The notes below the pieces were generated by a model. The model searched no databases. It saw only the letters and a list, made by a program, of their open reading frames with translations, and had not been told where the DNA came from. A stretch of DNA of 64,000 bases from Penicillus capitatus (taxonomy: Eukaryota; Plantae; Chlorophyta), in the NCBI GenBank assembly GCA_965649825.1, contig OZ287699.1, positions 1,518,477 through 1,582,476 of the forward strand, given 5' to 3'. Below, piece after piece: positions 23,071 through 56,370 of the stretch; the first letter of the stretch is position 1; every line of letters begins with the position of its first letter. The translations under genes and the position numbers were made by a program.

Positions 23071-23604
23071 ATGGCAAATCGATCGACGCGTGCGCAAGAC
23101 CGCATAACCCCTGAACAGTCTCACCTGTTAAACGAAGAGATCGCAGAATGCCGCGATCTCCATCGTTTTTTAACAAAACGATCCGCGAGTTCGACTTGCG
23201 CCTTTCGCAAGGCACACGCAACATCGAGGGGAGAGAAGAATTTTTTACACGACCATGTACGTGCTGACAATGCACAAGAACTCTGCTAACTTCTTTTTAG
23301 TCGTCCTTAGGTCAGAAGAACCTGCTCGAAGAGTGACGGAGACATATGTTGACAGTGTACGTTCAGCGATGAAGGCGCTTGAAGCTAGATTAGGCCGAAT
23401 CAAGGCCGTTCTGGATGCCAGCCCCGCATTGGCCGATTCGATAGAGGCCAGCGCAGACCGTAAGATGTTGGAAGTTTGTTCGAAATAACGGAAGAGATAA
23501 AGATTATGGACGCCGAAATCCAGAAGAAGACTGCCGCTGTGGATGCCCTTGTCAATAAGGCTCAAGGGGCTATGGACCATTTCTTTAAAGGCGTTGGAAT
23601 GTAA
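23071..23604 (+). pseudogene. Small coiled-coil family, copy A (~163 aa if two 1-nt homopolymer deletions are corrected)
   Basis: MANRSTRAQDRITPEQSHLLNEEIAECRDLHRF/FNKTIREFDLRLSQGTRNIEGREEFFTRP; intron 23257-23300 (phase 1); RRVTETYVDSVRSAMKALEARL...K/ITEEIKIMDAEIQKKTAAVDALVNKAQGAMDHFFKGVGM*. Colinear with copy B. Confidence 0.8.
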
Positions 23605-24249
23605 GACAATTGTGTAAGCCAAATAACATCTGCATCTCCCAATATCGCTCTGTTACCAAACGCACAGTCTCCCGATATTCGCGCTCTTAGAACACGATCT
23701 GCATTGGCAGCCGACAGATGTGACGTGACGTATACGCCCATCAAGGCAGACATCTACTCAATAAGGCAATGGAAGAAGACAACAAAAAAGAATTTGAAGA
23801 AGGGTGACAGGTATTGGCTGACATGAAATTGCAAACAGTTTGGTACATATGGACAGTGGGAGCAGCAGAAAGGTTCTCTGCATTTCAGATTGAGTACTCT
23901 GGCGCTTCAGCAATCGGCCATTTCTCCAAGGCTTCGTCATCATCTATTGTCGAATCAACCACAGAATGCTTGCACATGAAAACACAGTCACGGCGAAACA
24001 GGAAAGAACCATATCGATGACGCACATGTCCAGACTCTTCCCTTGCAGTCATTTCCTCATCGTTCTCTTCTGTCTCAGCGCTGCCTCTTCTTTGCGACAA
24101 AGAGGGTTCAGAGTTTGATATTGTTTTGACGAGCCAAAAGGGTGAAGAGATTTGCAGAATCGAACGATTTGAAGCAAAAGCGATGCGACTGCAGAAGCAG
24201 ACAACATCTTATAGCCATCTTACAGAGATCGTCTATGAACCAGAGTCGC

Positions 24250-25210
24250 TCGTAGATGTGCCGATTTGCCAAGCAGAGTCAGAGACATGTAGTTCTGGAT
24301 GGAAACGCGTCAGGAAGAGCCGTCGATGGTAGGCCACTGTCCTGGGTCTTCTGCAGACATGGAGAGTGCGATCATCTTCTGGCGGTATTCGGATGGTGTT
24401 CCCGTCTATAGATGGAGTTCCATCTTCTCTCTGGTCGGCAATGAAGAACATCAAGCAGAAATTCCGTCAAAGACCAATGAGGCATCAGCATTGCTCTGTA
24501 CACCTCGCTCAGCAGAGGACGTCATGAACGATGACGTCTGCTCACATAGATGACATAAACGGTCATCGAATGGAAGAGAATCTGTCGAGATCTGCCAAAC
24601 TGCGAGATGCCCCTCTGCACGATGTCCCACAACATTTGCAGCTCTTTCCTCAACTATGCGGGAACTTAAGAATTTTGTCCCGCTTCCCATTACACCTTCC
24701 TGCAAAGAAAGAGATTTGACTTTGGCTGTCAAAGCGATTGGCATCAGTTTCAGAGGCGTGCTCAATGTTGTGGGAATGTACGTACCCTAGAGATCTTAAC
24801 CCTCCAAGAGGAGACAGTGCTGGGCGCATCACGCATTCAAATGATCGTTCTCACACAGGTGATGCTGTAATTGGCCTGGCTGCTGAAAGACTCGGATCTC
24901 ATGTCGTCTGTCCCGGAATGACATTGGCGTCCATTTCCTCAACTATGTCCTTCGCAGAGGCAGCCATCTGTCCAACCGTCTACATCACAGTCGACATGGC
25001 ACTACTCAAATGCTCTGAGATGCAGCATGGGGAATCTTACTGGTCCACGGAGCGACAGGAGGCGTCGGGATGGCAGCTTTGCAGGTTATTCCGTCTAAAC
25101 GGCAAGGGTAATCGCCACTGCAGGATCTCCTTAGAAGAGGCACGTGCTGCGTACCATGGGAATGGACACAATGCTCAATTCACGATCCGTCGATTTCTGT
25201 GAAGGCAGAG
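24250..25210 (+). pseudogene. Type I PKS fragment (linker + enoyl reductase)
   Basis: LAVKAIGISFRGVLNVVGMY, PPRGDSAG, PTVYITVDMAL, frameshifted VHGATGGVGMAALQ; contains stops and frameshifts. Confidence 0.85.
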
Positions 25211-25439
25211 AATCCGTTCAGTTCTGGCAGCCAATGTGCCACTGGCTGATGCGCTAGAGACGCCACTCGGCGACTCTGTTCTTCCCTTTCGCCACCCATT
25301 GCTCTTTTCATTGATCGCATCGTTGATGGGATCTCCTGCGTAATCCAACTACAATGCTGCAAATGAATGGTTGCATGCCGTGGTTGTGAGATCTAAGCAC
25401 AGGGGATGCTGCGGTACCAGTGTTCAGTGGGGGTGCTTG

Positions 25440-25830
25440 GAGAGGCGCTGGTGTGGCGATGCGAATGAAGAGACGTCTGGAACGCATGCGACTCTCACTC
25501 ATCACACCTACTGCTGGTCTGCCTGCCCTCGAAGGCATTCTGAATCCACAAACATCACTGTCTGCCTGCTACTGCTGCATTCCTTTATCTGGGAGAGATT
25601 CATGGCAGAGAACCGTGCGGATCCCTTCTTCTCAAACTATGTCGCACAGAAAATCGCCGATATCGAAGAAAAGAAAGAGACGGTGGATGATTCGTTGCCA
25701 GAGATCGATGCTGATTAGATTGGACCTATGGTCACAAATGTCATGGAGGGTGCCTTTGAGTAGGCTCATAATCGCAGAAAGTCCCTTGGACAGTTTTTTG
25801 ATCTATTAAACTTCACCAAGTTTAGTATTG
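25440..25830 (+). pseudogene. Possible degenerate member (H) of the small coiled-coil family
   Basis: FSNYVAQKIADIEEKKETVDDSLPEI...KSLGQFFDLLNF resembles copy B's VKEKTKTVEDSLSKI...INLFFENI; two in-frame TAG; no TATTTATT box seen. Confidence 0.35.
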
Positions 25831-54600: not shown

Positions 54601-55084
54601 CGTGATCGGTGTTCTTGTATCCATTCCACGTACCGAGAGACGGACGATCGGATTGGTACCATCTCTGCAGTGGAGTCTCCCTTGTAAGATATACATTCTT
54701 GTATGCGTCGTTTCTCTTGCCGCTGGACGAACCACAGAAACAAAAGGATCGTCACCGTGCTTGGTAAATGCAGGATATATGTGAAGCGATGAGAGCAAGG
54801 TTCTGTGTTTACTAAGTCATGATGCATGATGTGTTTCCCGATGAAAGGAAGTGCACAGGATGAAACATTCGCACATTCTTTCAGATTCTTTCCGATGCGA
54901 TGCCGTTCAAAGCTTTGAGTCGTTTTCTCGTGGTATCCAACAGCAGTCCGACTCTGGGCAGCGCATCCGGGGGAGGAAAGTTGGCCCCTTTATCTTTGGA
55001 TCCCTTCATCCACATCCACATTCAGCTCGCATCGAGACATGACGCATCTTACGGGTAGGGTTTTCCTTTTACAGTCATCTGGAC

Positions 55085-55520
55085 GTACTTCGTCCGGCCA
55101 GAGCCATCTATTGAGAGCGGAGATGAAGATGTCGGGATGCGGTTCAAGAATAGCCTCCCAGTCCAGTTGATAGTCCTTTGGAATGCTCACAGTGATCGGC
55201 ATACCTACCGCCCAAAACAACGATAGTATCGTGGTGTACCCACACGCCGCCGTGCCTCTTGCCGACGGCATGCAATTGTATTAGTGGTATGTATAGGTCA
55301 GAATACGTCTGGCAATGTCATCCTTCTTCCTAGCGCTGACATCTCATCGATGGGCATGGGGCACGAACAGGTACCCGTCTGTAAGGCTTCCATGTATGTC
55401 TGAAATGTCGACGGCAGATCTTTCTCGAATTAATCCCATCGGGTTGGCGTCACGGGTGTCCGGATGGAAAACTCGAATCCATCTTTCTGGTCCGGAACCT
55501 TGACCAGCGTCAATCTGGTG
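55085..55520 (-). pseudogene. SRFR1/TTC13-family C-terminal fragment
   Basis: GFEFSIRTPVTPTRW; YN.MPSARGTAA.G...IPKDYQLDWEAIL..PD.FISALNRWLWP; in-frame stops. Confidence 0.82.
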
Positions 55521-55662
55521 CCTTCTGTTGAGCGCAAAGACGTCGTCGCATCGTCGGTCGAGCATCGTGAGCGTCGACGGCTGCGTGACTGCAGGTATTT
55601 ATTCGGCGCAGTTCACTACCTGCCATTACTGAATTCGACTACACGTTTTAGAAAAAAAAAAC

Positions 55663-56370
55663 ATGGCTTGCCGCATCACAAGCCACGGCCTCCATGAACT
55701 TAAACACGACATCATCAATTGTGGCCCGCTACGAGGATTGATAGAAAAATGGACCGGCGAAAGGAAGCTGGCGGGGATGCGAAAGGAAGCTGACGCGCCG
55801 CGAACGCGCCGACGCGTGTGCGAAGACGGAGGGACAGTGTTGAGTCAAAGCTGGCACTACTTACAGGATGCGTCCAGTCAATTAATACCCTCGGCGCCCG
55901 CGGACCGCTGTCATGTCAGGAAGCGGACAGCCTGTCCGGTCCACGGGACCGCAACCGTTGTCGTCCACCCGTCAAAAGCGCCTCGGGGTTGGCCAAGTAA
56001 CATACCGTATTTTACGTGTTACGCTCGATGCCGCCAGAACAGCAGGTAACACATACTCATTGATACTGTTCTATATGGCCGATATCATATTTGTGTCCAA
56101 GGCGGAGACCCCACAGAAGCCGACCAACGGTTGACATCTGTCTATTACGAAGCTAGCGATGATCTTTTTAATGACGTAATGAAAAAGATCAACCAGACCA
56201 GAGCCAAACTTAGAAAGATGCAGAACGTGCTCCACAAGACCAAGGTCCTCGATGGTGTCGAAAAAGCGGTAGATTTGTTGAAAGAGAGAGATGAAGAAAT
56301 TAAGGTATCCGCTCAATCTATTGAGGCTGACCTGCAAGGCTTCTTCGCAACAATCGACACACTTCTTTGA
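55663..56370 (+). pseudogene. Small coiled-coil family, copy E (146 aa), interrupted by a solo LTR
   Basis: TATTTATT at 55596-55603; MACRITSHGLHELKHDIINCGPLRGLIEKWTGERK|LTR|RLGVGQVTYRI...ARTA; phase-1 intron 56046-56101; QRLTSVYYEAS...LQGFFATIDTLL*; 441 nt after removing the LTR plus one TSD. Confidence 0.85.
55769..55974 (-). mobile_element. Solo LTR, 206 bp, imperfect TSD GAAGC/AAAGC
   Basis: TGGCGGGG...CCCGTCA; homologous to 34608-34804 along its length; flanks 55764-55768 and 55975-55979 match at 4 of 5 positions. Confidence 0.85.

Follow-up and report, generated by a model that had tools for sequence, protein, structure and literature searches.

The 64,000-nucleotide stretch of Penicillus capitatus DNA analysed here (contig OZ287699.1; the window) carries a dispersed family of small two-exon genes, seven copies of which (A to G) lie inside 37 kb, six of them disabled, mostly by retrotransposon end-pieces. 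The family is real and of protein-coding origin, its copies lie in a compartment that is decayed and rich in repeats, and to judge from the database searches it is an orphan, with no relative detected outside this organism. The copies unite three traits, as they attract several families of long terminal repeats (LTRs), have copy-specific promoter repeats and are placed amid scraps of duplicated genes. Our preferred explanation, held tentatively and at somewhat less than even chances, is an old orphan family of soluble helical proteins that is strongly transcribed, duplicates itself and is in genetic conflict with its host.

Protein identity between the copies is low, 20-35% in pairwise comparison, yet A, B, D and E align over their full length, and all six pairs among them outscored 1000/1000 heptad-preserving shuffles (z 5.7-29). 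A profile hidden Markov model (HMM) made from one subtype retrieved every member of the other subtype at E 3e-13 to 2e-8 (single target), and the family HMM matched A to G only among 2062 frames of the window. The initial annotation of this DNA had proposed a dispersed family of low identity but shared structure, and the shuffles and the cross-subtype matches, significant at profile level, bear it out; the coordinates and motifs it gave for A, B, C, D, E and F were as stated when re-examined. Its list of copies needs correction, as copy G was overlooked and a doubtful member H (~25.6k) gave no family-HMM match and is a polyketide-synthase (PKS) tail, its frame beginning in a KR domain. The phase-1 intron ascribed to the copies is present in B (with a doubtful acceptor, see below), D, E and G, and in A once one nucleotide missing near 23163 is taken into account; introns are retained in the copies, which have therefore spread as DNA. 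The possibility that exon 1 and exon 2 are repeats of each other was rejected on comparison. Two subtypes had been suggested, of which A/B/C and D/E stand, but F falls outside them, as it shares upstream DNA with G and 45/55 residues (82% identity) with P0004, a family member outside the window, on a contig whose length (1.58 Mb) equals that of the window's contig. By sequence F, G and P0004 look like a third subtype apart from D/E (the protein link between G and P0004 is weak, 9 residues).

Copy B (41579-42107, + strand) is the sole copy with an open frame and is identical in contigs from two samples of one study. Exon 1 (41579-41771) is followed by a phase-1 intron that begins at 41772 and ends at 41805 or 41835, and exon 2 runs to 42107. 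The in-frame acceptors give an intron of either 34 nt (164 aa) or 64 nt (154 aa), against 46-57 nt in all six introns measured in the host ETF-alpha gene, and an in-frame CTGTAT sits where a 46-nt intron would end, which makes the acceptor doubtful. B, called intact in the initial annotation, has an open frame but may carry a damaged splice acceptor, and with that included all seven copies may be impaired. Copy A (23071-23604, +) has exon 1 at 23071-23256, a 44-nt phase-1 intron at 23257-23300 and exon 2 at 23301-23604, and is a pseudogene due to two 1-nt frameshifts (deletions). The one near 23163 was recognised by comparison with P0010, a family member on a 494-kb contig outside the window, and the one near 23470 was reproduced by an independent read contig that is gap-free across it; A aligns end to end with B, D and E, but its frame is broken. 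Contig depth above the baseline over parts of A hints at near-identical extra copies, though depth is no copy number and was not used as evidence.

In copy D (34386-35082, +) exon 1 (34386-34548) and a 54-nt phase-1 intron (34549-34602) precede an exon 2 that is interrupted by an LTR 5 nt in, and with the LTR removed 146 codons are left. Copy E (55663-56370, +) has the LTR in exon 1 (55663-56045), followed by a 56-nt phase-1 intron (56046-56101) and exon 2 (56102-56370), and without the LTR it likewise has 146 codons. Copy C (52621-52786, -) is a C-terminal fragment of the A/B type. Copy F (25806-26520, -) is a remnant with its middle deleted, made up of a C-terminal coding remnant (26037-26201), the final codons (25806-25823) and a 5' region with two 86-bp repeats (26354-26520). 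Copy G (58958-59348, +) has a typical exon-1 core (59054-59219) and a 46-nt phase-1 intron (59220-59265), but its N-terminal extension holds two in-frame stops and exon 2 ends after ~27 codons.

While they diverged, the copies were under constraint as proteins, and relative to neutral change they are old. In protein-guided codon alignments, which favour positions 1 and 2 and in which the A-C pair is misaligned, identity by codon position is ~47/51/28% between A and B and similar in other pairs, third positions are 19-33% identical and dS is saturated in 11/12 pairs. Because synonymous sites are saturated, the earlier description of the family as rapidly evolving is not demonstrated, nor does the analysis speak against it, and the copies in the window may simply be old paralogues.

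Solo LTRs are present inside genes of the family. TG..CA ends, a short inverted repeat, a 5-bp target-site duplication (TSD) and many genomic sites were found for the elements at 25829-26036, 28351-28554, 34608-34804 and 55769-55974. The LTR of family 1 (~200 bp) is found at differing positions in D (34608-34804, -; 197 bp, TSD GTAAC), in E (55769-55974, -; 206 bp, TSD GAAGC/AAAGC with one mismatch) and, truncated, in F (26196-26353), where it is joined to the coding remnant via a short shared word. The one family-1 LTR of the window that is not in a family gene (28351-28554, +; TSD CTAAG) is in a broken Elongin A-like gene, with its TATA box in the same direction as that gene. The LTR of family 2 (25829-26036; 208 bp, TG..CA, TSD AGTAT) is in the last codons of F and has multi-copy loose ends in the reads, and when it is taken out F ends as P0004 does. 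P0004 starts with a translated family-1 LTR end, and one A-like read contig has a family-1 LTR end inside exon 2. In addition, a 144-bp LTR-like TGACGG..CCGTCA piece without TSD, found by eye, abuts C (52787-52930).

Within the decayed block (22-60 kb), 4/6 solo LTRs lie inside family copies, which are 8.1% of the block (p 5.6e-4, or 0.008 if the target is doubled), in a post hoc test (n=6) that counts elements defined by TSD or homology. With the piece at C counted the figure is 5/7, and for the family-1 LTR alone it is 3/4 (p 0.002); the high-depth repeats in the 20 kb compared with reads were those already counted. The TATA box of the family-1 LTR is antisense to the gene in 5/5 family cases (D, E, F, P0004 and the A-like contig; two-sided p 0.06). 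Two or three LTR families converge on one small gene family; their parent retrotransposons were not seen, and no superfamily is assignable to the solo LTRs. Outside the gene family, a 401-bp TG..CA element at 40315-40715 (TSD TATGA, raised contig depth) is probably a further solo LTR family.

The upstream regions combine a conserved box with repeats particular to each copy. In agreement with the initial annotation, TATTTATT ends 36, 49, 49 and 59 nt ahead of the four ATGs (A, B, D, E), at 23027-23034 in A, 34329-34336 in D and 55596-55603 in E (all +). The word occurs seven times on both strands of the window, four times at these promoters and once in the mirror arm of a palindrome at B; another occurrence, at 38609-38616 (-), has no family coding sequence nearby. 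It is likely to be the ordinary TATA box of this organism, since the LTRs carry related boxes. All tandem arrays with a period >20 bp (5/5) lie within 75 nt of a copy, upstream of A, F, D and B and downstream of E, while the share of the window within 300 nt of a copy is 12.6%. The module of A (22867-22997, +) consists of a 16-bp motif common to B and 3.1 copies of a 34-bp tandem repeat, that of D (34111-34336, +) of 7.4 copies of a 29-bp repeat leading into its box, and that of F (26521-26608, -) of a TATAAA box (26521) and a 21-bp tandem repeat, with a 46-bp match to the upstream DNA of G within this region. In E, 3.7 copies of a 32-bp repeat follow directly after the stop codon (56371-56489, +). 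The near-perfect 231-bp palindrome of B (41320-41550) has outward-facing TATTTATT on both arms, at 41341 and 41522, and an inner 54-bp tandem duplication, and no shuffle matched it (z -22.6, 0/200). A and B share the upstream motif at 16/16 positions, in opposite orientation, despite 35% protein identity; D and E are identical at 15/15 positions around the box, and the promoter of F and G is of a third type. The A/B upstream motif (22872-22902) also recurs in read contigs before other sequences and thus exists at further loci, and a 36-bp sequence at 38849-38884 (-), without family coding sequence nearby, is 78% like the 3' flank of A.

The proteins (146-164 aa) are neutral to acidic (pI 5.2-7.8) and have no membrane segment, the highest 19-residue hydropathy in nine sequences being 0.69. 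AlphaFold modelled exon 2 of B alone as one helix (pLDDT 88) and exon 1 alone, in a shallow model, as one long helix (pTM 0.39). The last 45 residues of exon 2 have a period of 3.52-3.56 in five sequences, and in three sequences a Gly or Pro is found 31-32 residues past the RxT motif. The predicted shape is a short head of helix encoded by exon 1, followed by an amphipathic tail of 80-90 aa with a kink ~31 residues in and a heptad period in the last 45. Such proteins are predicted to be soluble and would oligomerise and bind partner proteins, and nothing in their make-up resembles a membrane protein or a basic DNA-binding protein. Foldseek returned nothing for the single-exon models and VIA-align generic helices only (Z <=5.6).

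Besides P0004 and P0010, read contigs hold further A-like starts and exon-2 openings (paralogues). An exon-1 profile searched against 1.84 billion representative proteins gave four matches, namely three family members and one chance kinase-LRR repeat protein, a word-indexed search with exon 1 gave three and an exon-2 profile search six proteins only, all from contigs of a single length. No homologue in other organisms passed in these three protein searches, in which short and divergent profiles may overlook distant relatives. Matches in Pfam, NCBIfam and PDB were below-cut-off coiled-coil or chance matches only, and no housekeeping family or transposon reading frame matched the family. ESM Atlas gave nothing at >=0.9, Rfam no match and a metagenome scan one chance bacterial locus only (L001). 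Such a family is not described in the portions available of the literature on Bryopsidales and Ulvophyceae genomes, which cover the subject partially (PMC6476727).

The decayed block that holds the copies borders on ordinary genes. Window positions 1-22 kb contain MAP65/Ase1, ETF-alpha and IFT172, ordinary intron-rich genes; the spliced product of ETF-alpha is an open 326-aa frame. With IFT172 and an ETF-alpha of short introns, this part therefore belongs to a flagellated eukaryote with short introns. The IFT172 closely matches the IFT172 chain of PDB 8bd7, which we take to be from Chlamydomonas, and 6-9 nt past the stops of A and C there is a TGTAA word, presumably the chlorophyte poly(A) signal; these two features by themselves indicate that the host is probably a green alga. 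A sharp border separates the gene-dense block from 38 kb of mosaic (22400-60600), where broken pieces of unrelated host genes lie in both orientations: PKS (several), Elongin A-like, ProRS, CSE1, proline dehydrogenase (ProDH) and TBC, together with retroelement remnants. The claim of a repeat-rich compartment thus holds. The domain scan behind this covered 150/204 frames of >=75 aa, the remainder being mostly in an earlier scan or overlying family copies and LTRs. The gene scraps neighbouring the family copies are all dead too, and a dinucleotide signature of decay like that by repeat-induced point mutation was not found in the block. Read contigs align to exon-sized parts of the scraps but skip what lies between, among it the LTR at 28351, a pattern indicative of parent gene copies elsewhere. 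As for other features, an LTR retrotransposon interior remnant lies at 45000-48600 (weak RNase H-like and Tf2-type SH3 matches). A reverse-transcriptase C-terminal-like frame (43900-44930) and a 578-aa ORF1-like frame (60632-62368) resemble non-LTR retrotransposon remnants, both judged by eye and with no Pfam match. A frame at 42212-42631 (-) is like the start of a carotenoid desaturase (by a motif, with no Pfam match), which would fit a plastid-bearing host.

The preferred explanation of conflict would work as follows. The copies are likely to be strongly transcribed in the nuclei founding the next generation, and such transcription would draw LTR elements, by analogy to the wtf genes of Schizosaccharomyces, whose association with LTRs has been ascribed to high meiotic transcription (PMC5478263), and to what has been shown for Ty1/copia elements and inducible genes (PMC6668482). 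Open chromatin at the TATA promoters may attract LTR retrotransposons as well. Through promoters that form hairpins or repeats, each unit would seed duplications of DNA, which would drag along scraps of neighbouring genes and build the mosaic. Insertions that disable a copy, with an LTR promoter running antisense through it, could be tolerated or favoured since the copies cost the host, and the family would likely be a self-spreading element of the poison or suppressor type. The initial annotation had listed a drive factor among its candidates, and the knock-out pattern fits this, but the type of protein is unlike the wtf killers.

Several points weigh against this explanation. Neither a partner gene linked to the copies nor a second start kept among them was observed, and the proteins, without a membrane segment and with one short intron in the gene, differ from wtf killers in both respects. 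Everything in the block is broken, so that the high share of pseudogenes is not special by itself, and the LTR excess is accounted for, with no need of conflict, by the way Ty1/copia elements target the bodies of inducible genes (PMC6668482). The enrichment test was post hoc on six elements; the orientation bias of the family-1 LTR falls short of significance, and among the five cases behind it one is known from a translated protein and another from a contig end of 29 nt. That the units are duplication seeds is read from co-location in one window only, and positive selection was not shown, given the saturated dS. A stronger version of the idea is a long shot in our opinion: a new class of selfish driver in algae made of soluble coiled coils, in which ~1-kb units would amplify their own promoter via hairpins and tandem repeats, seed DNA duplications that build mosaics of gene scraps and bias which nuclei or gametes are transmitted; the host would in turn disarm copies by LTR insertions whose antisense promoters silence the remaining family.

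A possible alternative, to which we give rather less weight than to conflict, is an ordinary host family of inducible coiled-coil proteins (of stress, defence or gamete stage) evolving by birth and death, with copies swept passively into a duplication graveyard and hit by LTRs as inducible TATA genes. The TATA boxes and the amplification of elements upstream are in keeping with inducible genes, Ty1/copia elements favour the bodies of environmentally responsive genes (PMC6668482) and the 5-bp TSDs fit such elements, and the death of the copies is shared by the gene pieces around them. However, seven very divergent copies occur in 37 kb where most other genes occur once (PKS several), and five of them have repeats beside them, which argues for an active part in the mosaic, and one LTR orientation in all five cases is not predicted by a passive role. 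It is unlikely that the family instead belongs to a DNA transposon not yet recognised and serves it as a regulatory or accessory gene, comparable to VANC, mudrB or the Helitron cap genes; in that case the protein would maintain the activity of the element by binding the repeats beside its own gene, and the element would capture host gene scraps. Each subtype does have its own tandem-repeat unit beside the gene, as VANC has its targets (PMC5735166), and the mosaic of gene fragments is like Helitron or Pack capture, orphan cap genes being present in Pleurotus Helitrons (PMC4289320). Yet no terminal inverted repeat pair with TSD was found above chance in the window around any of the seven copies. 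Helitron-type 3' ends (3' hairpin and CTRR) number three in the window against 2-4 in three shuffles, with none at a copy, and no transposase or Rep-helicase matched among the window frames scanned. The proteins are also neutral to acidic, and among viral contigs none had a relative of B exon 1 or the LTR word. The suggestion that the family is the cargo of a mobile element accordingly finds no support in the window.

More improbable is that the genes encode degenerate homeodomain-plus-zipper proteins that no longer bind DNA and, as microProteins, pair with transcription factors in a dominant-negative manner. Exon 1 agreed with a homeodomain position pattern at 9-14/22 positions in 5/6 copies, with shuffles at ~6.6, a score reached by 0-7/500 shuffles and with a maximum of 9 in 38 helical controls, and its helix breakers fall near the turns expected of a homeodomain. 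But the pattern was broadened once the family had been inspected, G scores at chance, and the recognition-helix residues, which we take to be W48-F49-x-N51-x-R53 and which are seen in two control homeodomains, are absent from all six exon-1 sequences. These controls were two homeodomains in giant-virus contigs (L003 229-408, -; L005 179-358, -). Against one and two giant-virus homeodomains (1-2 templates only) hhalign gave a probability of 0.2-0.5%, Pfam and PDB searches gave no homeodomain match, and the shallow exon-1 model is one long helix. Finally, low pairwise identity and generic coiled-coil Pfam matches below the cut-off could be taken as chance similarity of unrelated coiled-coil frames, and the broken genes as assembly errors, but we consider this hardly conceivable. 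Chance likeness is ruled out by the heptad-preserving shuffles, intron phase, promoter box and codon-position pattern, and assembly error by independent contigs that reproduce B exactly and one frameshift of A.

The family is new and an orphan, and its tie to retrotransposons and local repeats is unusual and can be measured. If it is a driver or a suppressor of drive, it would be an algal killer-type system made of soluble coiled coils, of which no other is known to us in algae, although no search aimed at this was made; should it prove an ordinary inducible family, it would still illustrate clearly how retrotransposons target a single family of genes. Among known systems, the wtf genes are alike in being dispersed, divergent paralogues that retain introns, with many pseudogenes, a conserved upstream sequence and solo-LTR association, but they have several introns, multi-transmembrane proteins, an antidote and a poison from two transcripts and flanking LTRs (PMC5478263, PMC9562144, PMC11497594). 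In contrast, the family here has one intron of 44-56 nt and a soluble helical protein, its solo LTRs (4/6) are inside the copies instead of flanking them, and no sequence similarity to wtf was found. Each VANC of the VANDAL Mutator-like elements likewise belongs to a divergent family and lies beside its own dynamic tandem repeats (PMC5735166). Copy-specific tandem repeats are adjacent here too, but transposase, termini and TSD were not found in the window and there was no profile match. The Helitron-borne cap genes of Pleurotus ostreatus are also lineage-specific orphans with no known domain among captured gene fragments (PMC4289320), but neither Helitron ends nor a Rep-helicase was detected near the copies. 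Solo LTRs of Ty1/copia elements in inducible gene bodies share TG..CA ends, 5-bp TSDs, multiple copies and insertion in exons (PMC6668482), whereas here the parents are unseen and more than one LTR family hits the same small set of genes.

Primate core duplicons (NPIP/LCR16a and the palindromic GOLGA8), which seed mosaics of gene parts, are similar as recurrent units amid partial-gene mosaics with subtypes of gene structure (PMC7419210, PMC6920530). Within the window our unit does recur amid such a mosaic, and the likeness to GOLGA8 extends to a palindrome beside one copy and to coiled-coil proteins, which GOLGA encodes (PMC7419210, PMC6920530). The cores of primates are 20 kb compared to units of ~1 kb here, where the paralogues, at 20-35% identity, are not recent; if the likeness is true, this would be a small non-primate case of the core-duplicon idea. 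By analogy, then, the family may resemble wtf or the core duplicons in its behaviour while belonging to neither, a view that we favour with reserve and rate as not quite probable.

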